Positions 17,774-43,578 of a stretch of DNA of 64,000 nt are shown here, piece after piece (the stretch's first letter is position 1; each line of letters starts with the position of its first letter). Location: the NCBI GenBank assembly GCA_017505705.1, contig JAFVOS010000007.1, forward strand, positions 37,967-101,966. Reading direction: 5' to 3'. The position numbers and the translations under genes are program-made. Origin of the DNA: Alphaproteobacteria bacterium (GTDB lineage: Bacteria; Pseudomonadota; Alphaproteobacteria; Rs-D84). The notes below the pieces were generated by a model. That model made no database searches. It had not been told where the DNA came from and saw nothing but the letters and a program-made list of their open reading frames with translations.

Positions 17774-17810
17774 AGTAAATCCTCTAGCTTTTTGTTTTAA
17801 TCACACGTAT

Positions 17811-18671: not shown

Positions 18672-18688
18672 TTCTCTTTCCCCTATGC

Positions 18689-18787
18689 AAAACGGTGGTT
18701 TAGATTCGGCGGTTTTTGATGCTTGACAGTGCTAGAAATCCTGTGTTAAAATCATGGCAAGTGGTACAGAATCTAAACCACCGTTTT
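18689..18787. promoter_or_regulatory. candidate invertible promoter: 19-bp inverted repeats flanking a sigma70 promoter
   Basis: aaaacggtggtttagattc (18689-18707) / gaatctaaaccaccgtttt (18769-18787); inside: TTGACA (18723-28), 18-bp spacer, TGnTAAAAT (-10 at 18747-52) on + strand, pointing away from the gene starting at 18671. Confidence 0.8.
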
Positions 18788-18883
18788 TTTTAGGCAGCTA
18801 AAATTGCAAATTTATTTACTGTTTTCAATATAGTATTTCGTAAATATAGATTTTTATGATTTAAAAAATATTTGTGTCGGTGA

Positions 18884-21265
18884 TTATTTTATAATATTGA
18901 ATTTATGTGATGTGCCGGTGCCAGTATCGGTGGAAATGCGAATGGTGTGGGTGCCAATTGATACAGGCTGGACGTGGGTTTCGCCCGGTTTTGTTCGGGC
19001 TATCATTTTATCATCCAGAAACCAAAAAATTTTATCGTCTGGGTTCTGAGTAATGGCCATAAATGATATTTGTGCCTGGTTGGCGTCTGATACGATTACG
19101 TGATTTGTGCCGTCTGATGGTGATATTATCAGGGGTGCCGATGTGTTCGCAGAAATGTCATCTAATTCACAGCCCGGCATAAATGGGGGTGGGGTGTTGC
19201 GTTCAATTCCCGCACGTTTGAACATGTCCAGATATTCTGCATCCCAAAATTCATAAACCACCATGTGGGTGTTTTTAGGATCGGCGTTGCATGCACGACG
19301 CCCAGTGGCATTATCAATGGGAACTGCACGATAAACCGGTGATGTGTTAATTGGTGATACGCCCGGGATAAAATACGCAGATACAGATTTTGGACAATGG
19401 GGGCCTGCGATGCCACCAACATCGGCACACATTTCAACGGTTGCAATATTTAAATCATCATGCATAAAATTGTTGTCTTTTGTTGGTATGTCGTGCTGTC
19501 TGTTGTATTCCAGTATGCTGTCAGCCAGGCTGAAATATATTGGGGCGGCTGTTTTTGCGCCGCTGAATGCATTGTTCGGTGCGCCGTCAAAATTACCAAC
19601 CCATACAATTAATACATAGTCGCCAAATATGCCAGCTGTCCATGCGTCACGATATGACGATGATGTGCCCGTTTTCCAATAGTGGGTTATACGCTGTGGT
19701 GTGTGTTTGGCATATGGAATCTTTTTGTCGGGGGAATATTGACGGGCCAGCATATCCAATGTCATAAAGAATGATTCTGGTGATAAGATGTGACCTGTTA
19801 TTTCATCGGGGGCAGATGTGCGCATTTTTATGCTGCGACGTGTGCCCAGATTCGCCATCGTGGCATAAATGTCAGCCAGTTCGTACATGGAAACTTCGGC
19901 ACCACCCAGTGCAATAGATATGCCGTAATGTGATGGTGGTTTCAGGTTGCTGACCCCGGAATCTGACAGTGTTTTATAGAATTTGTTCAGACCAATCTGA
20001 CGAACCAGATTAATCGCAGGAATGTTTCTGGAATGGGTCAGGGCATCACGTGCCAATACGGGACCATAAAATTCACTGTCTGAATTTTCAGGGGCGTATA
20101 CACCAAAATTTATTCGTGCATCTTTTAGCAGCGTCATCGAATGTATGTGGCCGTCTGCAATTGCAGATGCGTATATCAGGGGTTTAAGGGTGGAACCTGG
20201 ACTGCGTCGGGCGATGACGCCGTCATTTTGCCCCAGGATGGATTCATCAAAATAATTTACAGATCCAATATATGATAAAACCTGCATGGTTTTGTAATTT
20301 ATCAGTATTGCAGAGGCATTCTTAACCCCCATGTGTTTGCGGATGGAAACCTGGTGGCGAAGCGTGCGTTCCAGATGATTGTGTAAATCCAAATCCAGCG
20401 TAGTGGTAATTATCGAATCGGGTTGTTGCGGGACAGATTTGTCGTGTGTAATCTGGCGGTCTGTGAAATGGGGGGCGTGAAACGGTAAATCACTGAAACC
20501 GTATACAGACAGGGGCATTTGAACCATTGTGGATAAATTTGAGTCGTCTGGATATTTAGATAGCCAACGGCGTACCAAATCGTTTCGCATTTTTGCCATG
20601 GTGGTCATGCCATGTGACGTGTTCAGACCACGTTTGGTGGGATTCTGGGGAATTGTTGCCAGGGTTATTGACTGAATTGTTGATAAATCTTGTGCAGGAC
20701 GATGAAAATAAATTGTTGATGCGGCACCGATGCCTTCTATATTGCCACCATATGGGGCTAAATTTAGGTATGCTTCGATAATTTCTTGCTTGGAATAAAA
20801 AGCGTCAATATAAATTGCTGCGGCAATCTGTTCCAGTTTTCCGGGGATTGTTTTGGTGTTTATGTTGTATTTTATACGTGCTAACTGCATCGTTATGGTC
20901 GATGCGCCGGCGGTGTCTGTATTGCCGGATATATAGTTGCGTGTGGCACGAAACAGGGCAACGGGATTGATGCCTGGGTGTGCGTAAAAATATTTATCTT
21001 CGTATAAAATAGTTGCGCGAATGATGTCTGGTGGAATTTGATTATATGGCGTGAATATTCGATATTTTTCATCAGCAGATAATGTCAGGCGCAATAATTG
21101 GCCATTTCTGTCGTAATAGGCACGTGAAAAATATGTGTCTGATAATAAATGTGGGGTAAAAAATAGGCGAATGAATATGTATACAATAACTATTGCCAAG
21201 CAAAAAAGCCAAAATCGTGGAAGACGTTTTAATGTTTGTTTTAAATTTTTGGGATTTTTATTCAT
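18884..21265 (-). CDS. pbpC: penicillin-binding protein 1C
   Basis: transglycosylase (EDKYF, GASTITMQLAR), SPGSTLKP, KTGTS; directly downstream of alpha-2-macroglobulin. Confidence 0.92.
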   Translation of the reverse strand: MNKNPKNLKQTLKRLPRFWLFCLAIVIVYIFIRLFFTPHLLSDTYFSRAYYDRNGQLLRLTLSADEKYRIFTPYNQIPPDIIRATILYEDKYFYAHPGINPVALFRATRNYISGNTDTAGASTITMQLARIKYNINTKTIPGKLEQIAAAIYIDAFYSKQEIIEAYLNLAPYGGNIEGIGAASTIYFHRPAQDLSTIQSITLATIPQNPTKRGLNTSHGMTTMAKMRNDLVRRWLSKYPDDSNLSTMVQMPLSVYGFSDLPFHAPHFTDRQITHDKSVPQQPDSIITTTLDLDLHNHLERTLRHQVSIRKHMGVKNASAILINYKTMQVLSYIGSVNYFDESILGQNDGVIARRSPGSTLKPLIYASAIADGHIHSMTLLKDARINFGVYAPENSDSEFYGPVLARDALTHSRNIPAINLVRQIGLNKFYKTLSDSGVSNLKPPSHYGISIALGGAEVSMYELADIYATMANLGTRRSIKMRTSAPDEITGHILSPESFFMTLDMLARQYSPDKKIPYAKHTPQRITHYWKTGTSSSYRDAWTAGIFGDYVLIVWVGNFDGAPNNAFSGAKTAAPIYFSLADSILEYNRQHDIPTKDNNFMHDDLNIATVEMCADVGGIAGPHCPKSVSAYFIPGVSPINTSPVYRAVPIDNATGRRACNADPKNTHMVVYEFWDAEYLDMFKRAGIERNTPPPFMPGCELDDISANTSAPLIISPSDGTNHVIVSDANQAQISFMAITQNPDDKIFWFLDDKMIARTKPGETHVQPVSIGTHTIRISTDTGTGTSHKFNIIK

Positions 21266-24200
21266 TAACTTGACTTAATACACTGAATGTTTTGGATGTT
21301 GGTGTTTTCGTTGCGGTTATGTCTGGATTATACATAGATGTTGCATTGATTGCAGGTATGGCAAAGGTGCCTGCGGCAGTTATCTGGGCGGTGTATGTAA
21401 ATTCGGATGTGTCACGTGTTAAATCTGTGTAAATTATTACACGATCTTCACGTATTTCAGAAAATGTTTGCGGGCCAATAACGTCTTCGGCAACAAAGCC
21501 ACCGGGCAACAAATCAGTAATGGCAATGTCAGGCAGATAGTTTGTGCCACGTGCGCGGGCACTGATTTTTACAGTCACAATGTCGCCCAGTTTGGCGGAT
21601 GCAATTCTGTTGCCGTTTTCATCATAATATGTGCGAGAAATTTCAATGCCATTGGATTCGTCTGATGCGGTGGTGGCAAATCCTTGGGTGACCAGGGCGT
21701 AATATAGTGGGGTGTCGTGTGTACAAGACAAGCATTCTAAATCCAATGTTTCGGCAGGTGTTGGTACCTGGGCAATTAGGATGTTGGATTCATTATGGGT
21801 ATCCAATGGGGCGTCGTTGTATAATATTTTTACAGATGATGGAGCAGAATTGCCTGTTGCCGCCCCATTTAACCCCATTACAATTTTTGCAGATGTAAAG
21901 GCATCGTAATTTCCACGATTGATATAACCAGTGATGGCATTGCCAGTATAGGTGATTGGGGTGTTAAACAATGTGTTTAATATGTACAGATATGTCGCAT
22001 CGTCGGATACATTGTTTGAATATGCAGACATATATTTAAAGCTACTGTGTTTTGACAGTTTATATTGCTGGATTAATTCTTGGGCCCGGTCAGATTGGCG
22101 CATAATTTGGAAACTGGCCCCGATATATACCCCAGAAATTTCTGATTCCCAGTGGCTGATGTTTTTATCAGCGTATTCTTGGAATTTGTCGATATAACTG
22201 GTTGTGACATATCCGTTTGTGGTCAGTACATATATCGCATATGCAATTGCGTGTGCGTGTTCAGGGGTAGTAATTGTCGTGCCTGCAAATTCACGCAGAA
22301 AATCAATGGCGCGTCCCAACATTGTGTCTGGTACGCTGAAACCGTTTTGACGGGCCATGGATAAAAAGTGAACGACATATGCAGTCAATTCAGCGTTGCC
22401 TTTGTCGGTTGAATGGGTGGTACTGGTTGGCCACAGGGCAAATGAACCGTCTGGGTTTTGGCGGTTCTTTAATGTGTTTATTGTGTCGCCAATTTTCTTG
22501 GACGATACGTTATAGTTTGTGCCCAAAATTGTGTTGTCTGGCAACAGGACATATGGAATTGCCTTGGAAACCAGTTGTTCTGTACACGTAAAATCATATT
22601 TTGACAGATATTCAAACAGGGGCTTGATTAATATTGCAGGCGTTTGAGATATGTACAGGGTTTGGGTTGCGTGTTCTGGATACATATCAATATGAAAGCG
22701 TTTAATCGTTTCGTGCTTTTTATTTATGATGTCTGTTTTTATGTGGGTTTCAAATGGGGTCGCTGGACGCACTGATATTGATGATGTCATTGAACGATTA
22801 ATCAGGGCCAAACCGTTATCATTAACAGCACTGGCATTAATCGTTATTTCTGATGCACCAGGTGTGTTTTCTGTTTGAGCGTGGAATATGAACAGGTGAT
22901 CATCTCCATTTTGAATATGATTTTCCATTTGTGCACCAGATGTTATTTTTATGTTATCTGATGTGACAATGTCTGTTTGAATGTTGATGCCATCACTGAT
23001 GTCTGTAAGATTCGCAATCAGTGCATTTATCTCAAATGTGTCCCCGGGGGCAACAAATGTTGGATTGGATACAGATATAACCAGTGGACTTTGTACAGTG
23101 GTTTCAATTTCAGATGCGCCAGCTGCAACGTCATTTGTTATAATTGCATAGATTCTTAATGTGCCATTAAAGTTATCTGGTACGTCAAATGTTATATTGT
23201 TTTTTGTGTTGGCTGTGACATCAATAATACCTGAGTAAAACGCCACAGGTGATAATATGCGACGTGCAAATGGATTCGATAATGGAGACGATAATTCTGT
23301 GTCGGGTGCATCGAAATCACCACCACCTGTTTTGGCAAATTCGCGCAGTATTTTATATTCTGGCAACAGTAATGATAATATCTGAAATGTTTCAACCTGA
23401 AGCGCAGATTTTGCAAAGAAATATTTTAAAGGATTGGGCGTTTTAAAGCGTGCAACCTGTAAAATTCCTTCGTCTATGGCGAACAGCATCATGCGACCAG
23501 ATTGGCTGGATTCGTATTCAATGTTTAATTTGTTGTCACGAATGATTTTTGGTGCATTCAGTGTGACGTCAATCGTTCTGGATTTTATATCAGTGCTGAA
23601 TGGGGCAACAGCGTATGTGTATGGTGATGTGAATATGTCACGTGAATCTATGCTGCGAATAAATGATACGTTTATATATCCAGTGCCTTCAAAATCAGCG
23701 GGCAGTTTGATTTTTTGGACAGAAGATGTTTGGTCTGCCTTAAACCATTTATATGCGTATACATTATCCCTTTCGATTGTAATCAGACCATGACCGGGGT
23801 ATGGGGTGGTTATATTTATCTGTATTTCATCCCCAGGAGTGTATGTTTCTGAATTTAGGGTTATTTCCATTTCGGAACTTTGTATGGTATTCAGTTCTGG
23901 GTTATCATCGCCGGCAACAAAGTATTCGATGTTTGAGATAACCTTGTCAGCGGCATCCAGTATTTGAACAAAGTATGTGCCAGGTTTTTCTGTTATCAAT
24001 GGAATAGATGCACCAGTCGTTGCAAGTGTGATTTTTTCTTGGGATACGACAGTGTCACGATTTGTTGTTTGATATTTATAAAAATTATTATAGTCCTTGA
24101 TAAGGCTGGTCAATTTATCACGATGCACAAAACGTACGGTCAAATCATTTACTGCAATTGGTGCGGATGTGTGATCCAGTGCAATAAAATCAATTTCATG

Positions 24201-26996
24201 CCCACTGTTGCGATTAATGTATTTTAAGTTAGTGTTTGTGTGGTGGCCAATCAAATATTTAGCATTTGAACAACGTGAAGTTATGGTTGTTTGTACGGAT
24301 TTGCCTGAATTTGGCTCAAATCCATTAATTGTTGCGGTTAATAGGTATGTTCCGTTTGGAATAGGGGTGTCAAATCTTATGTCTGCGTGGACAAAGCCAT
24401 TGCTGTCGGTATATATGTTGTCGATTGTTTTGACATATGTTTGGTTGTTGATTGGACTGCTGGATGACATGGGGGTGTCGTTGGTCGCATCAATTACAAA
24501 GTTGTATTGTGAAAGATTGTCAAATTTGAATTCTAATGGACGCAATGTTGCACGAATGCTGACCCGGCGATTGGATGCAGGGGTGCCAAATAAATTGCGC
24601 AAATCAATGTCGGTGCTGATTGTATTTGGGAAAATCCATCCTTGGCTGATTGCGCCGTTAATTACAGCGTTTATTTTCATTGTGTCTGGTGAAAATTCAG
24701 CAACGCTAAATGTGGTGGTGCCAAGCAAATCTTGGGGGGTGGCACGAACGTTCAAAGAATAAACGTTGACACTGTATTCGCCAATGGCGGCAGATGCAGA
24801 AATTGGAACCTGGATATCAAACATGCCGTCTGAGTGAAGCGATATGTTCTTTTCAAATATTATGCGCCCCCTGGGGTCTGTGACGCTGACTTTTACGGGG
24901 ACCCCTTCGGGTGATTTAAATGATTTGTTTTTTACAATTGCACCAATAATTGCCGTTTCCCCTGGGCGATATATGCCACGATCTGAAAATAAAAATGCTT
25001 TTAATGGAACGTCGGTATATGAATATTGGCCACCGGTATCAAATTTAGAGTATTGGACATGTTGAGAATGGGCTGCATCATATGGAATAAATGATACATC
25101 ATCATTTAATCTGGCGACAATTGCCACAGGTGCGCGCGCGTTTTTGTATTCGTTCCATGGCAGGGCAGGTATGTCTGCACGACCATTGGTATCAGTGCGA
25201 CCAGACCATATGGGGTTGCCATTGCGTCCCAAAACATTTATTTGGGCATCTGGTACAGGACCACCATTGGAAAGCTTGGACACAAACAGGGCAGATGTGC
25301 CATCTGTGTTCAGCTTTCTAATTATTCCCAGGTCTGTCACCACGACAAGACGTTTGTCGTTGAATTCAGCGTCATTTTCTGATGTGCCGGCCTGGATAAT
25401 AAAAATACCCGTTTTATCATTGGAAACACGATCCATATAGTCGCCCAAATCAAGTGAAGCATAATTTGTTTCAATTGCGTTTGATACATTCAGTGGAATC
25501 CGCTTTTCAAATACGACAGACATGTCATATGTTCCAAAAGACCATGACTTAAATTCTATGTCAGAAGCAAATACATTATATGTTTGTGATATTAAATGAT
25601 TTATTTCAGATGATTTGATTTTGTATAATTTTATATATGCATCGTGTACACCACCACGTGTCATAATCCCCAGCTTCTTTTCACCAGACATCGATAATAA
25701 TGCCCCAGAACCTGCGATTTTAACCGATTGTTCTGGATAGGAAACAGGAACAACGGTATTCAAACCGTTTTTCATTGTAAAGTCACCAACTGATTTTGCG
25801 CCCGGTGTTATGTCAATGTACAAATATCTGGGACTGGGATTAGGAATGTTGTATGCAAATGCATATTGGTTAACGCCCACTGGGGTGACAAAGTCAGATA
25901 GAGATAGCTTTATTTTTTTTGAATTCAGTAATACTTCTGGGGTTATTTCGTCGCTTTGCCATATATGGTTGTTGTCCGATGTAGAGTTGTCTTTGTATTG
26001 TGGCAACAGGTATGCGTTAATATGTTGTTTCCAGTCTGTTTTGCCAGCGGCTGGTGCGCTGGTTTGTATCAGTATTAATTGACGTGCATTGTTTTCGGAA
26101 TCGTCTGCGACAATCGATTCCAGTGAAGTAATGCGGAAAAAATTATCCTGGGCATTGATTATTGTACTGCCAGTTATTTTTTCTGTGTCAGAATGACCGT
26201 ACATTGCAGATACACGATTAAGTTTTAGACGCAGATCCTGTTCTTGGTCAATGACAGAAATTGGTTCAGATATAACAAAGGCAGTTCTATGAAAACGGTC
26301 AAATTTAATGTCGAATTTTATTTTTTTACCATCCAGACGCATTGATACCTTGTCTGCAAAATGTTCTGTGTTTATGGGGTAATTAAAAGATAAAATCGCA
26401 ACGCCAATCAGTTTTTTGGGATTGTCGGGTGATGGGTATGTGTTAAAGGAATCCAGCGTGGCAGCAATTTTCTTGGTTGAAAATGTCGCAGAATAACGGT
26501 CTGGGTGAACGTCCTTTGAAAACAGACGTTTGGATATCCTGACTGTGTATTTTGTGTCGGCAGGCCATGGCGCATCCGGGGTAAATGTGATTGTATATGG
26601 GTTTTTGATTGAGAATTTACCATGAACCAATGGGCTTATTTTTACATATTTTGCCAGGTCTGAATCATCAAGGTTTATATTAAATGCAGGATTGTATGGG
26701 CCAGACAGCCAATTGTATGAAATTTCAATGTGTTGTGCATTGGTCAGTGTTCTGTTGTTATTAATATCTGGTGTTGATGCAGATGATATAAATACCTGAT
26801 TATTATTGTCGGTAAATGTTATCGGTGACGGCTGGCTTATGTGCAGGCGCAGTTCCGTTTTTTCTGATTGATTAAGGCCAAGTGACAGAAACAGTGCACC
26901 AGCAACAATTCCAATAACAAAAATTATCGCCAAACAGGGCCATAAATATCGGCGAAATACAGACTTTTTATGTGCTGTTTTTTTTGTGCGTGTCAT
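21258..26996 (-). CDS. bacterial alpha-2-macroglobulin
   Basis: FSDRGIYRPGE, AIDEGILQV, thioester motif CTEQ, DLLPGGF, REDRV; paired with pbpC. Confidence 0.92.
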   Translation of the reverse strand: MTRTKKTAHKKSVFRRYLWPCLAIIFVIGIVAGALFLSLGLNQSEKTELRLHISQPSPITFTDNNNQVFISSASTPDINNNRTLTNAQHIEISYNWLSGPYNPAFNINLDDSDLAKYVKISPLVHGKFSIKNPYTITFTPDAPWPADTKYTVRISKRLFSKDVHPDRYSATFSTKKIAATLDSFNTYPSPDNPKKLIGVAILSFNYPINTEHFADKVSMRLDGKKIKFDIKFDRFHRTAFVISEPISVIDQEQDLRLKLNRVSAMYGHSDTEKITGSTIINAQDNFFRITSLESIVADDSENNARQLILIQTSAPAAGKTDWKQHINAYLLPQYKDNSTSDNNHIWQSDEITPEVLLNSKKIKLSLSDFVTPVGVNQYAFAYNIPNPSPRYLYIDITPGAKSVGDFTMKNGLNTVVPVSYPEQSVKIAGSGALLSMSGEKKLGIMTRGGVHDAYIKLYKIKSSEINHLISQTYNVFASDIEFKSWSFGTYDMSVVFEKRIPLNVSNAIETNYASLDLGDYMDRVSNDKTGIFIIQAGTSENDAEFNDKRLVVVTDLGIIRKLNTDGTSALFVSKLSNGGPVPDAQINVLGRNGNPIWSGRTDTNGRADIPALPWNEYKNARAPVAIVARLNDDVSFIPYDAAHSQHVQYSKFDTGGQYSYTDVPLKAFLFSDRGIYRPGETAIIGAIVKNKSFKSPEGVPVKVSVTDPRGRIIFEKNISLHSDGMFDIQVPISASAAIGEYSVNVYSLNVRATPQDLLGTTTFSVAEFSPDTMKINAVINGAISQGWIFPNTISTDIDLRNLFGTPASNRRVSIRATLRPLEFKFDNLSQYNFVIDATNDTPMSSSSPINNQTYVKTIDNIYTDSNGFVHADIRFDTPIPNGTYLLTATINGFEPNSGKSVQTTITSRCSNAKYLIGHHTNTNLKYINRNSGHEIDFIALDHTSAPIAVNDLTVRFVHRDKLTSLIKDYNNFYKYQTTNRDTVVSQEKITLATTGASIPLITEKPGTYFVQILDAADKVISNIEYFVAGDDNPELNTIQSSEMEITLNSETYTPGDEIQINITTPYPGHGLITIERDNVYAYKWFKADQTSSVQKIKLPADFEGTGYINVSFIRSIDSRDIFTSPYTYAVAPFSTDIKSRTIDVTLNAPKIIRDNKLNIEYESSQSGRMMLFAIDEGILQVARFKTPNPLKYFFAKSALQVETFQILSLLLPEYKILREFAKTGGGDFDAPDTELSSPLSNPFARRILSPVAFYSGIIDVTANTKNNITFDVPDNFNGTLRIYAIITNDVAAGASEIETTVQSPLVISVSNPTFVAPGDTFEINALIANLTDISDGINIQTDIVTSDNIKITSGAQMENHIQNGDDHLFIFHAQTENTPGASEITINASAVNDNGLALINRSMTSSISVRPATPFETHIKTDIINKKHETIKRFHIDMYPEHATQTLYISQTPAILIKPLFEYLSKYDFTCTEQLVSKAIPYVLLPDNTILGTNYNVSSKKIGDTINTLKNRQNPDGSFALWPTSTTHSTDKGNAELTAYVVHFLSMARQNGFSVPDTMLGRAIDFLREFAGTTITTPEHAHAIAYAIYVLTTNGYVTTSYIDKFQEYADKNISHWESEISGVYIGASFQIMRQSDRAQELIQQYKLSKHSSFKYMSAYSNNVSDDATYLYILNTLFNTPITYTGNAITGYINRGNYDAFTSAKIVMGLNGAATGNSAPSSVKILYNDAPLDTHNESNILIAQVPTPAETLDLECLSCTHDTPLYYALVTQGFATTASDESNGIEISRTYYDENGNRIASAKLGDIVTVKISARARGTNYLPDIAITDLLPGGFVAEDVIGPQTFSEIREDRVIIYTDLTRDTSEFTYTAQITAAGTFAIPAINATSMYNPDITATKTPTSKTFSVLSQVNE

Positions 26997-27165
26997 TGAT
27001 TCCCTTCCTGGCATACAAGTATTTATTTTAAATGCATATTTTCAAAAGACAAGTTTTTTATTTTATTTGTGGCATATACATATTTGAATGCGTGGATTTT
27101 AGAATATTGGCCATAAACCGGGGGTTGAGAGAGTTTTTACTGTCACAACCCAAAAGGAGTATATT

Positions 27166-27789
27166 GTGGTATATGGCTATATTCGTGTTTCTACGGATCA
27201 TCAAACAACAGAAAACCAGCGTTTCGAAATAAAGAAATTCTGCGAAAAACAAGATTTGTCCGTTGACGTATGGATAGAAGAAACGATTTCTGCAACCAAA
27301 GATTTAAATAAGCGAAAATTAGGGCGTCTGATAAAAAGAATACAAAAAGACGATCTGATTATTGCGTCCGAATTGTCACGACTGGGGCGTAATTTGCTGC
27401 AAATCATGAGTATTTTGCACCATTGTATGGATATTGGGGCAAAAATTTGGACGATTAAGGATAACTATCGTTTGGGGGCAGATATTACCAGTAAAGTATT
27501 GGCGTTTGCATTTGGTTTGTCTGCGGAAATTGAAAGAAATTTGATATCCCAACGAACAAAAGAAGCACTGGCCCGCGTCAAAGCCGAAGGCAAGATGATT
27601 GGGCGACCAAAAGGCAGTGCTAATTTGTCTAAACTGGAAGGACGTGAAAAATATATTCTGCAACGTTTGACGGATGGGCGCAGCAAAAGTGAAATCGCAC
27701 GACGGCTGCATGTGCATCGTGATACGCTGAACAGTTTTATTACGCACAAGGGTATTATGTCTGATGGAATCGAGGTAATTGAAATTTAA
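27166..27789 (+). CDS. serine recombinase, Mpi-family master DNA invertase-like
   Basis: YGYIRVST catalytic Ser, ENQRFEI, ELSRLGRN, WTIKDNYRLG, SKVLAFAFGLSAEIERNLISQRTKEAL (recognised as Bacteroides Mpi-like from memory), C-terminal HTH; RBS AAGGAG. Confidence 0.85.
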   Translation: MVYGYIRVSTDHQTTENQRFEIKKFCEKQDLSVDVWIEETISATKDLNKRKLGRLIKRIQKDDLIIASELSRLGRNLLQIMSILHHCMDIGAKIWTIKDNYRLGADITSKVLAFAFGLSAEIERNLISQRTKEALARVKAEGKMIGRPKGSANLSKLEGREKYILQRLTDGRSKSEIARRLHVHRDTLNSFITHKGIMSDGIEVIEI

Positions 27790-29691: not shown

Positions 29692-29834
29692 TTCTTCGTG
29701 TCCCTCCGCAGGCACCACGCCCACACATATTATTATATAGTACAAAAAAACTGCTTGTCAATATGTTGAGCGGGGAAATGTCTTGGTCGAATTTTATATT
29801 TTTACTTGATTTTTTTAAGGATTTGGTTTAGTAT

Positions 29835-29948
29835 CGGGGCACGCACATATGTGCGAAGAACACAACCGTTATGCTTATTTGTGTCTGAATCTGTAAGATT
29901 TGGGTTTTGCATACGGCGAGGATAACAACACAAAAAAGGATATAAATC
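29835..29948 (+). promoter_or_regulatory. rpsB leader (probable S2 autoregulatory RNA)
   Basis: ~110-nt structured UTR after a TAGTAT -10-like box and before rpsB; autoregulation assumed from known rpsB leaders. Confidence 0.45.
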
Positions 29949-30800
29949 ATGGCATTGCCAACATTTACAATGAAACAGTTGATGGAAGCTGGTGTGCACT
30001 TTGGTCACCACACACGTCGCTGGAATCCATTAATGACACCATATGTTTATGGCGTTAAAGATAAAATTCACATCATTAATTTGAACAAGACAGCACCATT
30101 GTTGCATCGTTCCTTGGTCGCACTGGAAGCAATTGCCGCCGCTGGTGGAAAAATTTTGTTTGTTGCAACCAAGCATCAGGCAAAAGATATTGTTAAAGAT
30201 GCAGCAGAACGTTGTGGTCAGTATTATGTTAACAACCGCTGGTTGGGTGGTATGCTGACAAACTGGACAACAGTGTCACAGTCTATTCGTCGTTTGAAAA
30301 AGATGGAACATGATATCGAAAACGCCGAAAAATTGGGCCTGACCAAGAAAGAAGTCGGTGTAATGACCAAGGAAGCAGAAAAATTACGTGATATTTTCGG
30401 TGGTATCTTGGAAATGCATGGCGTTCCACAGGCGATGGTTGTAATTGATGTTCCACGTGAAATGAATGCTGTTCGTGAAGCTAAGAACCTGGATATTCCA
30501 ACAATCGCAATTTGCGACACAAATGCGAATCCAGAAATGGTTGATTACCCAGTTCCAGGTAACGATGACGCAGCACGTGCAACCCAGTTATACTGTGATT
30601 TGTTCGTAGATGCGATTTTGTCCGGTATCGAAAAGCGTCTGGGTGGCGCAGCCGGCAAAAAAGTAGAATCTGATATGAAGGCCGATGCAGCTGATGAATT
30701 AGAAGATGAAATCAAGGAAAAAGAAGCCAAGATTAAATCTAAAACATCAGAAGCGCGTTCAGAACGTCGTGCAAAATTGGCTGACAAAGCAGATAAATAA
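29949..30800 (+). CDS. rpsB: 30S ribosomal protein S2
   Basis: LMEAGVHFGH..RWNP, RWLGGMLTN, PGNDDA. Confidence 0.97.
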   Translation: MALPTFTMKQLMEAGVHFGHHTRRWNPLMTPYVYGVKDKIHIINLNKTAPLLHRSLVALEAIAAAGGKILFVATKHQAKDIVKDAAERCGQYYVNNRWLGGMLTNWTTVSQSIRRLKKMEHDIENAEKLGLTKKEVGVMTKEAEKLRDIFGGILEMHGVPQAMVVIDVPREMNAVREAKNLDIPTIAICDTNANPEMVDYPVPGNDDAARATQLYCDLFVDAILSGIEKRLGGAAGKKVESDMKADAADELEDEIKEKEAKIKSKTSEARSERRAKLADKADK

Positions 30801-30881
30801 TATCTGAAAATGTAATCGTGCAAGGGGGGGCAACCCCCTTGTGCAACAAGATTTAAATATTTTAACATTGGGAGAAAACAC

Positions 30882-31751
30882 ATGGCGGAAATTACAACAA
30901 AAATGATTCAAGAACTGCGTGAAAAAACATCTGCAGGTATGATGGATTGTAAAAAAGCCCTGATGGAAAATGATGGTGATATCCAGGCTGCGGCTGATTG
31001 GTTGCGTCAAAAGGGTATCGTAAAGGCTGCGTCAAAAGCAGGTCGTGTTGCGGCGTCTGGTTTGGTGACAGTTGTTAAATGTGATGACATGGGTTGTGTC
31101 GTTGAATTGAATGCAGAAACAGATTTTGTTGCAAAAAATGAAATGTTCCAGAAATTGGTTTCTGGTGTTGCAAACAAAGCCCTGGAATTGTCTGGTGATT
31201 TTGATGCAACAATGGCAGCGGTCAAAGATGATATCGCAGCAACAATTGCAACGATTGGTGAAAATATGAACCTGCGTCGTATTGCAACGGTTAAGGGTGA
31301 CAAAATCTTTACATATATTCACAATGCATTGGTTCCAGGTATGGGACAGATTGGTGTGGTGGTTGCAATCAATGGTACAGATGCAAAAATTGATGAAATT
31401 GGTTCCAAAATTGCGATGCATATTGCGGCTAATAAACCAGAATTTATGACCGTTGCAGACGTTGATCCGGTGGCGGTTGAACGTGAAAAGAAAGTTTTCA
31501 TTGAATCTGGTGCAACAGCTGGCAAACCAGAAAACATTGTTGAAAAGATGGTAGAAGGTCGTTTGAAGAAATACTATGGCGAAAGTGTTCTGGAAGAACA
31601 GCCATTTGTTATGGATCCATCTAAGACAGTAAAAGAAGTCATCAGCGAAGCAAATGGTAAATTGTCTGGCTTTGCATACTTTGTATTGGGCGAAGGTATC
31701 GAAAAACGTGAAGATAACCTGGCCGATGAAGTTGCAAAAATGTTAGATTAA
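30882..31751 (+). CDS. tsf: elongation factor Ts
   Basis: LREKTSAGMMDCKKAL, ELNAETDFVAKN; follows rpsB. Confidence 0.97.
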   Translation: MAEITTKMIQELREKTSAGMMDCKKALMENDGDIQAAADWLRQKGIVKAASKAGRVAASGLVTVVKCDDMGCVVELNAETDFVAKNEMFQKLVSGVANKALELSGDFDATMAAVKDDIAATIATIGENMNLRRIATVKGDKIFTYIHNALVPGMGQIGVVVAINGTDAKIDEIGSKIAMHIAANKPEFMTVADVDPVAVEREKKVFIESGATAGKPENIVEKMVEGRLKKYYGESVLEEQPFVMDPSKTVKEVISEANGKLSGFAYFVLGEGIEKREDNLADEVAKMLD

Positions 31752-31803
31752 TGTTTGATGAATTTTGTTTAAAAGATATACACCCACCATCGGTGGGTGT
31801 GTT

Positions 31804-33093
31804 TTATTTGATTAAATCGCTGGATTTTATGTATTCTGCGTCTGTGGGCTTTAAGTGCTGACGTGCACGTTTGGCATGGGTGGTGGCCATGTCTGGGTCG
31901 CCAATCAGTGAATAATATTCGGCCATGGCCCATGCGTTTCGACCAGGATCTGTGTCGCCATAACTGCGTGCCAATACCCAATATGCCAATGGTGTTGGGG
32001 CAGATAATATCGAACGCTTGCACAGGGAAATTGCCTGGTCAATGTCAGATGGTTTTTTGCGTTCTGATAAAACCAGGGCCAGGGCTGTTTCAACCTGGGG
32101 GGCAGAACCCAATAAGGTTAATGCATGGCGGTATGCGTCGACACTGTCGTCATAGTGACCAAACTGATATTCAATATCGCCCAGCAATTCATAAAAATAA
32201 CCGTTGTTTGGGTGGCGTGATATCAGTGTCTGGGTGCCAATGCGGGCACCGTCCAGGTTGCCACCACGCATGTTGGCAATTGCACGTGCGTACAGGGCCG
32301 CATCTGATTTATCGGCGTATGGATATTTTAGCAAGACTGTTTTAGGGGCGTCCAGATAGCCAATCAATTTTGCCCGAACCATTTCAAATTCGGGTGTGGT
32401 GGTGTCTGGGGTTAGTGGTTGGTGATTGGATAATTGGTCGGTGGCGTTGTTCAGACGTTCACGTGTTAATGGATGGTTTATACGGGTTGGGTTTATTTTC
32501 CCTTCCATGACGCCTGTTTGATCGTGCATCTGTTCAAAGACAGTGATAAAACCATGTGGATTTAGGTCGGCCTTAATCATTAAATCAATCCCCAGGTTGT
32601 CCGCAATGCGTTCTTCGTCACGTGAAAATGCCATCATTGATTGGGTTGCAATGCCACCAGAACCAGCTAATACGCCGGCACCCAATGATGGGTTGCCGCC
32701 TGCGACCATCAGGCCAATCCCCAGGGCCTGAATTAACATTGTGCGTTTCATTTCTGCATCCATACGGGCCGATAACTGGGCCATGTGGCCGCCAATTGTA
32801 TGCCCCAGTTCATGCGCAATAACCGCCTGGAGGGCAGATGGGGTTTTGATTTGCTTTAACAGGCCAGTGTAAATATAGACATCTTCGCCACCACGAACAA
32901 ATGCGTTGAAGTCTTCATCATTTACAATATGTATTCGCAACCGATCTGGCGATATGTTTGCAGCGGTTGCCAGGGGGGTGACCAACTTGGTTAGAATCGT
33001 TTCTGTTTCTGTGTCGTTAATCAATGTCGCACCATAAACAGGGGGCAACAATAATATTGATAATAAAAATAGTACAATTTTACGCACCTGCAA
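31804..33093 (-). CDS. M48 metalloprotease with TPR repeats (BepA/YfgC-like)
   Basis: FNAF, AHELGH, FSRDEE, C-terminal TPR helices; start may be the GTG at 33087. Confidence 0.85.
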   Translation of the reverse strand: MQVRKIVLFLLSILLLPPVYGATLINDTETETILTKLVTPLATAANISPDRLRIHIVNDEDFNAFVRGGEDVYIYTGLLKQIKTPSALQAVIAHELGHTIGGHMAQLSARMDAEMKRTMLIQALGIGLMVAGGNPSLGAGVLAGSGGIATQSMMAFSRDEERIADNLGIDLMIKADLNPHGFITVFEQMHDQTGVMEGKINPTRINHPLTRERLNNATDQLSNHQPLTPDTTTPEFEMVRAKLIGYLDAPKTVLLKYPYADKSDAALYARAIANMRGGNLDGARIGTQTLISRHPNNGYFYELLGDIEYQFGHYDDSVDAYRHALTLLGSAPQVETALALVLSERKKPSDIDQAISLCKRSILSAPTPLAYWVLARSYGDTDPGRNAWAMAEYYSLIGDPDMATTHAKRARQHLKPTDAEYIKSSDLIK

Positions 33094-35137: not shown

Positions 35138-35206
35138 ATGTTTTAAATTTAGTGAATTTTAACTAAATATTCAATAGAAAACCCGCCAATCGGCGGGAAA
35201 AAGTTT

Positions 35207-35932: not shown

Positions 35933-35984
35933 GAATTTATTCCTGTCTTGATTTTCTTTTGGTAAACGCAGTATAATCTAAACC

Positions 35985-37445: not shown

Positions 37446-37519
37446 TCAAAATAAAATTTGAATCAAGGGCTTGTTTATGATAAAATACAATCATAAAAGA
37501 ATGTAAGGAGTCCTTAGTC

Positions 37520-38419: not shown

Positions 38420-38460
38420 TATAATTGTTTGAATAAAAATCCCCCAAAGTTGGGGGATTT

Positions 38461-39276: not shown

Positions 39277-39348
39277 GCTAATGATCCTTATGTTTATATC
39301 TAATATTGTAGTGCAAAAATAATATTTGTCAACTTTTATTTATATTTC

Positions 39349-39522
39349 TTGCATGTTATGAAATAAAGTAGTAATATTAACTGGGTGACAGGTTTGTTTG
39401 TCAACTGAAATTATTCCCATGTCTTTATTAACAATAATAAAATACCATGGGTATGGCGCATGGCCACAGATTCACTACCAATAGAGAGTTTTTCTTTATT
39501 AGCAATGAATTGACGGCCATGC
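39349..39522 (+). promoter_or_regulatory. promoter plus three-hairpin 5' leader of rnj
   Basis: TTGCAT-17-TAATAT; stems tgaca/tgtca, cccatg/catggg, gcatggcc/ggccatgc. Confidence 0.5.
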
Positions 39523-39554
39523 ATATGTAAAATATAAAAAAGGATTTATTATAA

Positions 39555-41324
39555 ATGGTAAAAGTTAAAGAAAAGAAAAATTTGCCAGAAAAAATTTCTG
39601 GAAAAACAAAGCACGAAAGTGACAAAAATGATGATAAAATGTATTTTATGGCACTGGGGGGGCTGGAACACATTGGCCAAAATATGTATGTTTACAAGTA
39701 TCAGGGTAAATATTTAGTGGTCGATTGTGGTATGGGTTTCCTGGAAGAAGAAATTGGTGCAGGTGATGTTCAATACTGTGATACAACATGGTTGGAAAAA
39801 CGCAAAAAAGATGTTGTGGGGTTTGTTATTACACATGGGCACGAAGATCATATTGGGGCGTTGAAATATATTTGGCCGAAATTTAGAAAACCGATTTATT
39901 GCACACGATTTCCGGCTGAAATCTTGCGCCGTACGTTTCGTGGTATTGAAATGGATTTCAACGAAAAGACAGATATTGTTGAATTTGATCATAATGGTGC
40001 AGAACTGGATTTGTCGCCATTTACGGTTGAAACATTCCATGTCACACATTCTGTCCCAGAAGCACAAATGTTAATTATTAAGACAGATGCAGGTAAGATA
40101 CTGCATACAGGGGACTGGACATTTAACGATGATATTCCAATTGAAGCCCCGACTGATTTTGCACGTCTGGCTGAGATAGGTTCTGATCCAAAATTGCTGG
40201 CGTGTATGTGTGATTCAACGAATTCTTCACGTCAGACCAAGCAGGTGACAGAAACACAAGTCAGGGACACTTTGACTGAAATTATGAAAAATGCCCCAGG
40301 ACGTGTTATTGTGACAGGTTATTCACGCAGTTTGGCACGTATCAAAATGTTTGCAGAGGCTGCACGTGCCGCAGGACGTATTGCAGCAATCAAAGAACGC
40401 ACGAATCCAAATCCTGTGCCATATGTTGGGTTGCCAGAATTTCGTGAAATGGGTATTGAATTTGGCTATCTAAAGAAAGATGAAATATACACTCATGGCG
40501 AAATCAAGGATTTGCCAGCAGAAAAACAGGCGGTGTTCTTGACAGGATCCCAAGGGGAAAAGTTCGCAATGTTGACACGTCTGTGTCGTGGCCAGGTAAA
40601 AGAAATGCAATTAATGCCAACAGATACGGTGGTGTTCAGCTCTATTATTATTCCGGGACGTGAACAGGATGTGTCTTTCTTGTACAACAAATTGGCACGT
40701 ATGGGCATAAAGACACATACTATATTTGATACAGATAATGTTCATGCCAGTGGACATGCAGGACGGCCAGAACTAGAAAAGTTTTATGATATGGTTCATC
40801 CCCAGGTATCGGTCCCAATGCATGGGGACTATATCAACGAAATGTTGAATGGTAAGATGGCGATGGAACGTGGCGGTGCCAAACATATGATGGTTGTGCA
40901 CAATGGGGAAATGGTTGCGCTGCGTGATGGCGAAGAACCATACGTTGCAGAAACAATCGAAACATCATATGTAGTTATGGAGGGGGAAACAGAACGCAGT
41001 GCAGACGACCAGGTTTATAAAAATCGTCGTAAAATTGCATCAAATGGTGCTGTTTTTGTCACGTTGCCGGTTGATAAGCGTGGTTTCTTGAAAGGGGTAC
41101 CAGAAGTTTCCAGTGCGGGTATATTTGAATCTGATACAACAGGGTTTATGAAACGACAGATTCAAATAGAAATAACCAAGGCAATTGATGGGCTGAGCAA
41201 GGCAGAACGAAAAGATCGTGATAACCTGGTTCGTGCGGTTCAGGTGGCATCTAATCGTGTTGTTCGGGCGTCGCTGGGGGCGGATAAAAAGCCACAATAC
41301 AGTGTGCACTTTATTCAAAAGTAA
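39555..41324 (+). CDS. rnj: ribonuclease J
   Basis: ALGGLEHIGQNM, THGHEDHIG, HTGDW, TGSQGE, HASGH, PMHG. Confidence 0.93.
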   Translation: MVKVKEKKNLPEKISGKTKHESDKNDDKMYFMALGGLEHIGQNMYVYKYQGKYLVVDCGMGFLEEEIGAGDVQYCDTTWLEKRKKDVVGFVITHGHEDHIGALKYIWPKFRKPIYCTRFPAEILRRTFRGIEMDFNEKTDIVEFDHNGAELDLSPFTVETFHVTHSVPEAQMLIIKTDAGKILHTGDWTFNDDIPIEAPTDFARLAEIGSDPKLLACMCDSTNSSRQTKQVTETQVRDTLTEIMKNAPGRVIVTGYSRSLARIKMFAEAARAAGRIAAIKERTNPNPVPYVGLPEFREMGIEFGYLKKDEIYTHGEIKDLPAEKQAVFLTGSQGEKFAMLTRLCRGQVKEMQLMPTDTVVFSSIIIPGREQDVSFLYNKLARMGIKTHTIFDTDNVHASGHAGRPELEKFYDMVHPQVSVPMHGDYINEMLNGKMAMERGGAKHMMVVHNGEMVALRDGEEPYVAETIETSYVVMEGETERSADDQVYKNRRKIASNGAVFVTLPVDKRGFLKGVPEVSSAGIFESDTTGFMKRQIQIEITKAIDGLSKAERKDRDNLVRAVQVASNRVVRASLGADKKPQYSVHFIQK

Positions 41325-41330
41325 ACAAAA

Positions 41331-41350
41331 GAACCGCCAATTGGCGGTTC
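41331..41350. terminator. bidirectional terminator
   Basis: gaaccgcc-aatt-ggcggttc between convergent rnj and miaA. Confidence 0.6.
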
Positions 41351-42241
41351 TTATTTTTTTATTATTTCTAAAACATCTTTTTCTGTTGGGGTGTGCGAAA
41401 TTTCAATGTCTGGATTGTACTGGGTACGAAACCAAGTGCGCTGGCGTTTGGCATATTGATTGGTTTTATTTATCCAGTCTGTTATGCAATCATCAATATT
41501 TTTTTCACCACGCAGGTGGCTGCATAATTGGCTGGCACCAATGGCACGTCGTTCGTCCCAGCCAGATTCTATTATAGATTTTGCTTCGTCAATTGCGCCG
41601 CCGGACAACATCTGGGGGATGCGTTCGCTGATTCGTTGGCGCAGAATGTCGGCTGGTGGATTTATTAGAATACGTATTGCGTCTGGTATGACGGCGCCTG
41701 TGCGTGGAATTCGTTGGAATTCTGATAAATGATGACCCGTTTCAAAATATACTTCCAGGGCACGTGCAACACGTTGGGGATCCGTTGCGGAAAAATCTGG
41801 CGGTAATAATTTGCGGGCGTTGGTTATGTCTTGGGCAACCATATCACGTGCACGATTGCGTGAACTGTCACTGATGTCGGGCATTGGTGATATGCCGTTT
41901 ATTAGTGCGTTTATGTAATAGCCTGTGCCGCCCACAAAAATTGGTGTTTTGCCATCCGATACGGCCAAATCATATTCTTGACGTGCCAACGCCAGATAAT
42001 CAGATACGCTGATTTGTTGGGTCAGGGGTAATATAGAAAACAGTTTATATGGGATGTTATCAATGCTGTCCGATACAGGGCGGTTTGCAAATGGGCTGGC
42101 AGAAATGTTTTCGATGCCCTGGTATATTTGAACGCTGTCACAATTTATGATGACGCCATTTGTATGATGCGCCAAAATATGGGCAAAATCAGATTTGCCA
42201 GATGCAGTTGGACCTGTGATAATGTATGCCTGGTGTGTCAT
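41351..42241 (-). CDS. miaA: tRNA dimethylallyltransferase
   Basis: ITGPTASGKS, INCDSVQIY, VGGTGYY, YAKRQRTWFR; start set at MTHQAY. Confidence 0.93.
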   Translation of the reverse strand: MTHQAYIITGPTASGKSDFAHILAHHTNGVIINCDSVQIYQGIENISASPFANRPVSDSIDNIPYKLFSILPLTQQISVSDYLALARQEYDLAVSDGKTPIFVGGTGYYINALINGISPMPDISDSSRNRARDMVAQDITNARKLLPPDFSATDPQRVARALEVYFETGHHLSEFQRIPRTGAVIPDAIRILINPPADILRQRISERIPQMLSGGAIDEAKSIIESGWDERRAIGASQLCSHLRGEKNIDDCITDWINKTNQYAKRQRTWFRTQYNPDIEISHTPTEKDVLEIIKK

Positions 42242-42348
42242 TTCCTGGGGATTATAGCCCAGATTTTTTTCATGTAAATAAAATATTGTAAATCTGAAAA
42301 ATATGGTGCTAAGATATATTTGTACAATAAAAAACGAAAGGAATATAT

Positions 42349-43350
42349 ATGTCAAAAGTAAGAGTTGCAATTAACGGTTTCGGGCGTATCGGGCGCTTGG
42401 TTTTGCGTGCAGCACTGGAATCTGGGCGTGATGATATTGAATTTGTTGCTGTAAATGATTTGGCACCAGCTGAACAAAATGCATATTTGCTAAAGTATGA
42501 TTCTGTACATGGTAATTTACCCATGGATGTTGTGCTGGATGGTGATTACATCAATGTGGGAAATCAACATATTAAGTGTATCGCAGAACGTGATCCTGCA
42601 AAGTTGCCATGGGGCGAATTGAATATTGATATTGTAATGGAATGTACAGGGATATTTACGGCAGCAGACAAGGCACGTGTTCACCTGGAAGCAGGGGCCA
42701 AACGTGTTCTGGTTTCGGCGCCATCGGCTGGGGCGGACAAGACAATTGTATATGGTGTAAACCAGGATACATTAACATCGGACGATTTAATCGTTTCTAA
42801 TGCATCTTGTACAACGAATTGTTTGGCGCCTGTGGTCAAGGTATTGAATGATACGTTTGGCGTGGTATCTGGTTGGATGACAACAGTACATGCATATACC
42901 GGTGACCAGCAGTTGCTGGATAAGAATCACAAAGATTTCCGTCGTGCACGTGCGGCAAATCTGTCAATGATTCCAACCAGTACAGGGGCAGCCAAGGCAA
43001 TAGGTTTGGTTTTGCCAGAACTGGCGGGCAAATTAGATGGAATGGCGATTCGTGTCCCAACCCCAGATGTGTCTGTGGTGGAATTGGTTGCTAATTTGGA
43101 AACAGCGGCAACGGCTGATGAAGTGAATGCAGCAATGAAAGCGGCAGAATCAAAAACATTTGGATATAATGATTTGCCGTTGGTATCGATTGATTTTACC
43201 CATGATGCACACAGTTCTGTATTTGACGCCGGTCAGACCAAGGTTTTGGGTGATAAATTGGTTCATGTGACAGCGTGGTATGATAATGAATGGGGTTTTT
43301 CAAACCGTATGGGCGATACCGCTGTTGCAATGGGTAAGTTGATAAAGTAA
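42349..43350 (+). CDS. gap: glyceraldehyde-3-phosphate dehydrogenase (type I)
   Basis: AINGFGRIGR, SNASCTTNCLAP, WYDNEWGFS. Confidence 0.97.
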   Translation: MSKVRVAINGFGRIGRLVLRAALESGRDDIEFVAVNDLAPAEQNAYLLKYDSVHGNLPMDVVLDGDYINVGNQHIKCIAERDPAKLPWGELNIDIVMECTGIFTAADKARVHLEAGAKRVLVSAPSAGADKTIVYGVNQDTLTSDDLIVSNASCTTNCLAPVVKVLNDTFGVVSGWMTTVHAYTGDQQLLDKNHKDFRRARAANLSMIPTSTGAAKAIGLVLPELAGKLDGMAIRVPTPDVSVVELVANLETAATADEVNAAMKAAESKTFGYNDLPLVSIDFTHDAHSSVFDAGQTKVLGDKLVHVTAWYDNEWGFSNRMGDTAVAMGKLIK

Positions 43351-43407
43351 AAAAATTATGTATGTGTTTTCCCCATGCAAAATTTAGTTTGTGTGGGGAT
43401 TTTTATA

Positions 43408-43436
43408 TTGCTAAAATCGTCGCAATGCATTAGAAT
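43408..43436 (+). promoter_or_regulatory. sigma70-type promoter upstream of invertible segment
   Basis: TTGCTA (43408-13), 17-bp spacer, TAGAAT (43431-36). Confidence 0.55.
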
Positions 43437-43461
43437 ACATGGCATAGACAGGAAAAATACC

Positions 43462-43578
43462 TGCCTAAAATAAAGGGACGTTTAGAATCTCCCTTTTTAT
43501 TTTTATAAAATTCCCAGATTTCTGCATATTTTTCTCCCTTAATTATTGCCTAAAACAAACGTCGGGTTTTTATCGGCA
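43462..43578. promoter_or_regulatory. candidate invertible segment carrying RBS, ATG and signal-peptide n-region
   Basis: sites tgcctaaaataaagg[GA]cgtttagaatct and tgcctaaaacaaacg[TC]gggtttttatcggca; 7-bp IR gacgttt (43477-83) / aaacgtc (43557-63); minus strand inside reads aagggag-aaaaat-ATG CAG AAA... Confidence 0.75.

Follow-up and report, generated by a model that had tools for sequence, protein, structure and literature searches.

A probable Mpi-type multi-switch phase-variation system with ultra-short segments beside genes for cysteine-rich proteins in a gut alphaproteobacterium

We analysed a stretch of 64,000 nucleotides (the window, G000:C5:37967-101966) from the gut alphaproteobacterial metagenome-assembled genome (MAG) G000, in which a preliminary description had proposed that a stand-alone serine recombinase switches cysteine-rich surface proteins by inverting short segments at two loci. 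We consider it very probable that this is a genuine Mpi-type multi-switch phase-variation system. It is indicated at the level of the DNA by the crossover sites, their constant spacing, the promoters, the in-frame design of one class of switch, the family of the recombinase, its co-occurrence with the sites, and the presence of both orientations among paralogues and species. The features that very probably set it apart from known systems are the ultra-short segments and switches that flip a start codon. The assembly of G000 (962,633 bp, 12 contigs, about 41% GC, 96.8% complete) belongs to a lineage that is probably Candidatus Enterousia of the order Rs-D84. Positions without a contig refer to the window; those with a contig number and no genome refer to G000.

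Paired crossover sites and two classes of switch

Both loci carry two sites with complementary centres 85 bp apart, at 18695 and 18780 (GT/AC) in locus 1 and at 43477 and 43562 (GA/TC) in locus 2, and the stretch 43461-43490 on the plus strand is identical to 18797-18768 on the minus strand at 25 of 30 positions. The four centres, the spacing and the match between the loci had been given in the preliminary description, and all were reproduced on recomputation. The sites share a pseudo-palindromic core, AAAC[C/G]-NN-[C/G]GTTT; with the fuller consensus, GCCGAATnnAAAC[C/G]-NN-[C/G]GTTTnnATTCGGC, each is about 28-30 bp long. For motif scans, a 14-nt half-site weight matrix (centre-outward consensus CGTTTTTATTCGGC) was built from the two repeat families. 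It found 26 full sites in G000 and 4 in the reversed genome, 23 of the genome's sites having been the training set, and a separate IUPAC pattern with at most two mismatches gave 21 matches against none in the reversed genome, so that the sites occur beyond chance.

The scan for pairs about 85 bp apart with complementary central dinucleotides yielded 13 in G000, all 13 inverted, with a distance of 85-86 bp from centre to centre and an interior of 83 bp between the centres. As the DNA stands in the assembly, 12 of these switches are OFF and one is ON. The difference between GT and GA at the two loci of the window stands, but only these two kinds of centre occur in the genome (GT in 6 switches, GA in 7), so the dinucleotide is not locus-specific. 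The earlier suggestion that it bars rearrangement between loci therefore fails for individual loci; at most, two groups of switches would be kept apart. Two or three sites have no partner, the high-scoring C2:6700 and C4:11065 and perhaps the weak C12:7268. The solo site at C4:11065 lies about 50 nt upstream of a signal-peptide gene with a Shine-Dalgarno (SD) sequence and ATG (MAKQNRFYLLIALL...) and may be a locked-ON remnant.

Locus 1 is a promoter switch. Its gene-proximal site (18681-18710) consists of two 14-nt half-sites around GT at 18695-18696 (matrix score 30.5), and its distal site (18766-18795; centre AC at 18780-18781; score 31.2) has the outer half ...TTTTTTTTAGGC. The arms form a 19-nt perfect inverted repeat, AAAACGGTGGTTTAGATTC, or 26 nt at 88% identity, with 61 nt between them. 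The 18-nt core AAACGGTGGTTTAGATTC occurs in exactly two copies in the window, on opposite strands, where 0.06 would be expected, and none of 100 shuffles contained two or more copies. The inner segment (18711-18765, plus strand) contains a promoter, with TTGACA at 18723-18728, an 18-nt spacer and TAAAAT at 18747-18752, which matches the consensus at 11 of 12 positions and has an extended -10 TG. It points away from the only adjacent gene start, the ATG at 18671 on the minus strand, and is thus in the OFF orientation.

The genes behind this switch (14702-18671) all lie on the minus strand. That which starts at 18671 encodes a 286-aa Cys-rich Ephrin_rec_like protein (17811-18671) and is followed by a second of the kind (16892-17773), both with about 8% Cys, and directly downstream by two family-2 glycosyltransferases (15741-16742 and 14702-15748), as assigned from Pfam and the open reading frames (ORFs). 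The Cys-rich and glycosyltransferase genes would be co-transcribed, and through them glycosylation may be phase-variable too. At C4:29623 the gene order resembles that of locus 1, with two low-Cys ORFs at about 30757-32632 in the position of the glycosyltransferases.

Locus 1 is one of six switches that we call class B, all of which contain the sigma-70 type promoter TTGACA-N17/18-TAAAAT in the interior. Orientation was read from the distal flank, which is always ...TGCCTAAnnnAAA, to the gene flank with ribosome-binding site (RBS) and ATG. The promoter is directed away from the gene in five switches and toward it in one (C4:26568/26654); in this ON copy, AAGGAAAA-N-ATG and a signal peptide come after the promoter. 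Four of the five OFF interiors resemble the ON interior at 41-43 of 56 positions when reverse-complemented and at only 27-32 of 56 on the direct strand. The fifth OFF interior gave an ambiguous identity (32 vs 33 of 56), its promoter being reversed all the same. Fixed flanks around a reversed interior are what site-specific inversion predicts. With inverted repeats around a promoter whose orientation is decisive, and ON and OFF forms among paralogues, class B would fall under the definition of invertible promoters. Three class-B switches (G000:C1:13496, C5:5789 and C8:18522) are nearly identical, and so are about the first 20 codons of the Cys-rich genes behind them, after which the gene bodies diverge, a pattern that points to duplication of a cassette or to gene conversion at the 5' ends.

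Locus 2 is built differently. The preliminary description had regarded both loci as promoter switches, which proved right for locus 1 with its internal promoter; at locus 2 the promoter (TTGCTA-17-TAGAAT, 43408-43436, plus strand) is fixed outside the invertible segment, and what the segment carries is an SD sequence, a start codon and a leader. The distal site (43463-43492; centre GA at 43477-43478; score 27.6) and the gene-proximal site (43548-43577; centre TC at 43562-43563; score 33.3), the latter within the Cys-rich reading frame, share the direct repeat TGCCTAAAA and have the cores AAAGG-GA-CGTTT and AAACG-TC-GGGTTT. Inside the segment the leader cassette lies on the minus strand (43465-43540), with the SD sequence AAGGGAG at 43534-43540 and the ATG at 43527-43525. 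As the DNA stands, this leader reads MQKSGNFIKIKREILNVPLF-stop, ending after 20 codons, and the switch is OFF. The body of the Cys-rich ORF (43546-43920, plus strand; 10.5% Cys) has no Pfam match.

Seven switches, locus 2 included, belong to this class A, in which the promoter lies upstream of the distal site; the fixed promoter is kept in all six class-A copies of the GA type (GA-type copies). On its opposite strand the interior has AAGGGAG-N6-ATG, followed by about 16 codons (MQKSGNFIKIKR...). The Cys-rich ORF opens 19 nt before the proximal centre without an SD sequence, its first codon being TTG in four paralogues and CTG in two. When the 83 nt were flipped in silico, SD sequence, ATG and leader came into frame with the Cys-rich ORF in 6/6 GA-type copies. 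The resulting products have 135-354 aa (locus 2, 135 aa), and at the start of each a charged N-region precedes a hydrophobic stretch. The switch at C4:2257/2343, which has a GT centre and lies before an ORF of 758 aa, follows this logic too. At G000:C6:8787-8832, beside a terminator, 46 nt remain as a relic of a class-A interior (93% identity), without flanking sites.

In the OFF state of locus 2, the distal site and the interior together form a hairpin, AAAGGGA/TCCCTTT (43472-43496), followed by a T-run. RNAfold gave a leader hairpin with a U-run for the OFF form of the six GA-type copies and another hairpin without a U-run for the flipped form; the OFF hairpin may act as a terminator. The possibility that the hairpin at locus 2 is simply the terminator of the preceding GAPDH gene was ruled out, the true terminator being found at 43370-43399, upstream of the locus 2 promoter.

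When the segments were aligned at their midpoints, both classes were found to share a GC-clamped A/T motif at the dyad, for example GCCAGAAAACTGG and GCAGAAATCTGGG. In locus 1 this central motif is GCTAGAAATCCTG (18731-18743), exactly at the midpoint, and in locus 2 CCCAGATTTCTGC (43513-43525), likewise at the midpoint. It is palindrome-like, as in CCAGAAAACTGG or GCAGAAATCTGG, in all 13 switches of G000 and most relatives. Of 45 segments, 39 have a match to a loose pattern of the motif no more than 3 nt from the midpoint, whereas among 2648 other positions 11 match; without the loci that had been found through the motif itself, the count is 17 of 23 (class B of G000, 4/6; L192-L208, 13/17), and these numbers include paralogous, non-independent copies. 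The motif is the spacer between -35 and -10 in class B and encodes QKSG in class A. Since these roles differ, it is constrained as DNA and not as a coding or promoter element, and we infer that it may be an architectural element which by bending lets the short loop synapse. Three genes of the HU/IHF family are present in G000. Matches to the IHF consensus at the central motif were rejected after inspection by eye.

Next to each of the 13 switches is an ORF with 7-10.5% Cys and an N-terminus like that of a signal peptide, and this extends to the whole genome what had been noticed at the two loci of the window. Ten of the products were scanned, of which five are Ephrin_rec_like in Pfam and five have no family. 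Only the 13/13 count was used, because stop-to-stop frames with at least 6% Cys number 325 in the genome and are too noisy as a background. As for the earlier description of these proteins as surface antigens, signal-peptide-like N-termini are borne out, and only from these may a location at the surface be supposed.

The serine recombinase and its association with the sites

The stand-alone gene at 27166-27789 (plus strand), which had been described as a serine recombinase, encodes a protein of 207 aa with a Resolvase domain (Pfam, residues 2-143, 6.9e-32) and a C-terminal helix-turn-helix (HTH; matches at residues 159-195). The catalytic serine is residue 9 in GYIRVST, aligned with GYVRVST of Gin. 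The assignment to the Mpi type was upheld by NCBIfam NF009949 (master DNA invertase Mpi family serine-type recombinase), on which the protein scores 310.7 bits (cut-off 272), with residues 1-198 aligned to profile positions 1-199 of 203. The best relative of solved structure in PDB is the Gin invertase (1e-14, 57.7 bits, 158 aa). G000 has three Resolvase matches, and 27166-27789 is the only small serine recombinase among them, the other two being ORFs of about 540 aa. Homologues that are 78-87% identical come from ruminant-gut MAGs titled Alphaproteobacteria bacterium and from one Candidatus Enterousia sp., and those with 63-68% identity from Bacteroidales, Treponema, Clostridia and other groups.

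The link between enzyme and sites was followed in a genus survey of 101 genomes, G000 among them, in which the relatives are not independent of each other. The site pattern gave 453 matches in these genomes and 61 in a backward control. Of the 42 genomes with an NF009949 match above the cut-off, 30 have at least four sites; of the 59 without such a match, 2 do. Fisher's p of about 1e-13 for this co-occurrence is overstated because the related genomes are not independent. The matrix scan found no crossover site near the recombinase gene of G000. Similarly, within 3 kb of recombinase homologues only one weak match (L155) was seen in 80 loci from many phyla.

A close arrangement of enzyme and sites was found in G026, a genome from another family of the same order. 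Here 71 nt separate a recombinase of 61% identity from one of two sites that the matrix recognises. The two sites lie 1112 bp from each other in two inverted halves of hsdS (Methylase_S; L015, G026:C18:25245-28826, positions 1486-3537) and together make up a perfect inverted repeat of 30 nt. By its appearance, this is a specificity shufflon of a Type I restriction system that the recombinase family operates. In the window, the gene pair for a bacterial alpha-2-macroglobulin (1918 aa) and PBP1C lies beside the recombinase gene (18884-27014, minus strand), and in at least five relatives (G013, G017, G014, G003 and G022) PBP1C and the recombinase are likewise about 8 kb apart.

Orientation states and alternative explanations

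Site pairs 83-86 bp apart are also present in G017, G015, G022, G065, G099, G080, G088, G006, G115, G048 and G042. The MQKSG leader module is ON in G017:C3 (193 aa) and G017:C5 (133 aa), where it reads into long signal-peptide ORFs, and possibly in G099:C3 (67 aa). Twelve OFF modules with recognisable flanking sites were found in G065, G099 and G080, and five of them flip to ORFs of 162-356 aa. The leader motif was also matched in G062:C6 and G080:C3b, without recognisable sites. Six copies examined in G006 were all in one state; in five a promoter was detected by a regular expression, and those with a known gene flank have it directed away from the gene. At the orthologous position after GAPDH a switch was present in one of 29 other species (G088), and was OFF as well; after PBP1C there was none in 29.

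Many contigs of relatives have an end no more than about 200 nt from a switch (G006:C12, G006:C15, G115:C6, G048:C11, G048:C17, G088:C5, G088:C15 and G042:C37), and the switches appear to break these assemblies, either as repeats or through mixed orientations. Additionally, Logan contigs of four runs from four studies were placed on G000:C1:11000-30500 (19.5 kb), which holds one class-B and one class-A switch, neither of them the window's own. The contigs broke at both C1 switches in 4/4 runs. Multi-copy repeats alone would break contigs there.

Metagenome contigs were also scanned. The class-A leader pattern gave no stretch in contigs of JGI/ENA, a search from which records very near the window's genome may be excluded. 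A second scan with paired cores was followed at 80 loci out of at least 119 matches, most of these loci being unrelated tandem repeats or chance matches, and a clean inversion polymorphism was seen among them only between L215 and L265 on one side and L249 on the other. These contigs are 97-99% identical over about 7.7 kb, and the 97 nt across both sites are 98.97% identical on the opposite strand. The sites of L215 and L249 are AAACG-TT-CGTTT and AAACG-AA-CGTTT, with centres 85 bp apart and the core AAACGTTCGT; the outer half-sites are in place and the inner half-sites are swapped. The inverted segment lies at 2734-2819 in L215, 12323-12408 in L265 and 2597-2682 in L249, between waaA-lpxK and a family-8 glycosyltransferase gene of a gut bacterium with 52-54% GC. 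The LpxK of L215 has at most 51% identity among 400 sampled Alphaproteobacteria. This polymorphism demonstrates natural inversion of 85-bp segments between sites of this kind, the window's organism aside. A tandem repeat array of about 64 nt lies upstream of the L215/L249 switch. The contigs L253, L267 and L287 represent one further metagenome locus in a single state.

On these data we propose that one chromosomal Mpi-family invertase, encoded at 27166-27789, would act in trans on about 13 dispersed ultra-short segments and that strand exchange at the central dinucleotide would flip the 83-bp interior. In class B, one of the two orientations of the sigma-70 promoter would transcribe the adjacent Cys-rich operon. 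In class A, the leader RNA made from the fixed promoter in the OFF state would fold into a hairpin with a U-run, leaving the ORF without a ribosome-binding site or start codon; a flip would bring the SD sequence, the ATG and about 16 codons, which encode a charged signal-peptide start, into frame with the Cys-rich ORF. With 12 switches OFF and one ON in the assembly, each cell probably displays few Cys-rich proteins at a time. Going further, and only tentatively, we suggest that these are the smallest natural invertons of serine recombinases, in which a spacing of eight helical turns (85 bp) and the central motif fold the sites into a hairpin-like 'mini-invertasome', and that a single Mpi-family enzyme drives two devices, a promoter flip and a flip of RBS, start codon and signal peptide, for a one-or-few-at-a-time Cys-rich repertoire in a gut bacterium with a reduced genome and probably dependent on a partner. 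Such a repertoire would parallel, in a bacterium, the variant surface protein families of eukaryotic parasites.

Several observations weigh against this proposal. All seven class-A switches, and all six G006 copies, are in one state, and fixed elements would look alike. No strand-change joint was present at the two C1 switches among the joints listed for the Logan contigs of the four runs; the inversion claimed earlier is thus backed by comparison and architecture, while none was seen in the Logan contigs of this genome. The six GA-type copies are recent, close paralogues, so the six in-frame flips amount to one design seen six times. Among the 12 OFF modules of the relatives, three flip only to ORFs of 21-41 aa and one to an ORF of 94 aa with no obvious signal peptide, the remaining three being counted in none of these outcome classes. 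A consensus terminator scan gave no call on the class-A OFF hairpin, which it missed because the loop is longer than 8 nt. The loop between the sites would need strong bending, since 85 bp is less than half of 200 bp, the shortest Hin-flipped segment found reported (PMC2427008). As to the enzyme, 12 of the 42 recombinase-positive genomes have fewer than four sites by the pattern derived from G000, six matches to tyrosine recombinases (Phage_integrase) are present in G000, and tblastn found no recombinase in the 80 metagenome loci and hence none in the contig DNA of L215 and L249.

Part of this would be expected if the switches were repeats of about 115 bp of the kind of miniature inverted-repeat transposable elements (MITEs) or repetitive extragenic palindromes (REPs), with terminal inverted repeats, scattered together with pieces of promoter and leader and with no present inversion. 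Their multiple copies, their non-orthologous positions (1/29 after GAPDH, 0/29 after PBP1C), their presence at several contig ends in relatives, the site-less relic at C6:8787-8832, the solo sites at C2:6700 and C4:11065 and the lack of flipped reads among those seen are all compatible with such elements. Random insertion, however, would not have put 13 of 13 copies before Cys-rich signal-peptide ORFs, nor would it complete an ORF in frame on flipping. It also leaves unaccounted for the constant 85-86 bp in two classes with unrelated interiors, the fixed flanks around a reversed interior and the co-occurrence with one recombinase family, and no transposase is associated with the elements. We consider this explanation unlikely. 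The switches may, on the other hand, be inverted by another enzyme, the Mpi-family protein serving some other target. The six tyrosine recombinases and the two large Resolvase-domain ORFs of G000 are candidates, the sites keep away from the recombinase (apart from the one weak match within 3 kb in 80 homologous loci), and the enzyme-site link is correlative. Against this stand the symmetric dimer-type sites with an asymmetric 2-bp centre and the AAAC..GTTT core of DNA invertases (Din), which are typical of small serine invertases, the co-occurrence in 30/42 against 2/59 genomes, and the homologue directly beside matrix-positive sites at the hsdS shufflon. A distance between enzyme and sites is also familiar from Mpi-family enzymes, which act on 13 regions in B. 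fragilis (PMC4747536). It seems quite unlikely that a different enzyme is at work.

Very improbable, in our opinion, is an arrangement without any rearrangement in which the paired palindromes are operators of a DNA-looping transcription factor eight helical turns apart. Palindromic sites, a spacing of 85 bp in helical phase and a conserved central motif would suit such a factor, but it would not explain why five of six promoters face away from the only adjacent gene, why an SD sequence, ATG and leader on the wrong strand fit the frame of the ORF when flipped, or why ON and OFF arrangements with fixed flanks and a natural 85-bp inversion exist.

Relation to known inversion systems

If the system is as we propose, master-invertase phase variation reaches beyond Bacteroidales into an uncultured alphaproteobacterial lineage with genomes of about 1 Mb. 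In the genus survey, the site pattern detected at least four sites in 32 of 101 genomes. For a genome of this small size, a density of about 1.3 switches per 100 kb suggests strong selection for variation of the Cys-rich proteins. As a natural cassette that moves a ribosome-binding site and start codon, the 83-bp interior would be very small; it would bear on how a serine invertase brings sites at a distance of 85 bp into synapsis and could provide a compact part for synthetic memory switches. Inverton finders that need long repeats or an intergenic position would miss class A.

A literature search of open papers without their supplements gave no account of inversion switches of start codon and signal peptide like these, nor of such a system in this lineage. 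Dependence on partner cells is assumed for the Enterousia/Rs-D84 lineage (PMC12306168), and recombinase, cysteine and surface are not mentioned in the passages of that paper that were searched. In the terms of the PhaVa survey, class A, which overlaps a gene start, would count as a partial intergenic inverton; those found there were mostly shufflon-like and significantly longer than other classes (PMC10028968). A family of 83-bp start-codon cassettes is not described in the passages of that survey that were consulted, and the data tables of PhaVa or DeepInverton might list similar short invertons.

The sites resemble those of the Din group (Hin, Gin, Cin and Pin, with hix and gix sites), which are likewise inverted, imperfect palindromes with a 2-bp crossover core and AAAC[C/G]-NN-[C/G]GTTT (PMC3241671, PMC2427008), and the core equals the published Din consensus ...AAAC- -A -GTTT... 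(PMC3241671, Table 3). The enzyme, too, is a small serine recombinase with a C-terminal HTH. In contrast to Din, whose centres are mostly AA, the centres here are GT or GA, and the outer half-site is ...ATTCGGC with a different outer triplet. The protein is only distantly related to Gin (1e-14) and is no close kin of Hin or Gin; its segments have 85-86 bp instead of about 1-4 kb, and it would serve many unlinked sites. Segments of 85 bp leave no room for a Fis-bound enhancer.

Class A is similar to cwpV of Clostridioides difficile in that the promoter lies upstream of the invertible region, and the hairpin and U-run predicted for its OFF form would correspond to those of cwpV at the junction of repeat and segment (PMC2784873). 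The cwpV region differs in its length of 195 bp, in containing no part of an ORF and in its tyrosine recombinase, whereas here the SD sequence, the ATG and the first codons are inside. In the 5'-end swapping of Mollicutes, as in MBA of Ureaplasma (PMC3047005) and Vpma of Mycoplasma agalactiae (PMC2268961), inversion likewise determines whether a gene body receives an expression-competent 5' end, signal peptide included. There, one expression site serves alternative genes over kilobases by means of tyrosine recombinases; here each gene has a private 83-bp cassette.

The closest comparison is with B. fragilis, where the serine recombinase Mpi acts in trans on 13 regions, seven of them promoters of capsular polysaccharides (PMC4747536, PMC10403206). 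The present system shares with it the protein family (NF009949), a single stand-alone gene and the gut habitat, and this gene would likewise serve many dispersed switches and control a surface or secreted repertoire. The Mpi core is presumably ARACGTWCGT; by eye, the locus 1 core AAACGGTGGT matches it at 8/10 positions and that of the inverted metagenome locus, AAACGTTCGT, at 10/10. The present system differs from Mpi in its host, an alphaproteobacterium of about 1 Mb and not a member of Bacteroidales, and in its targets, which are genes for Cys-rich proteins, partly together with glycosyltransferases, and not capsule operons. In addition, the segments here have 85 bp, and one class of them would flip not a promoter but the SD sequence, the start codon and the beginning of a signal peptide.

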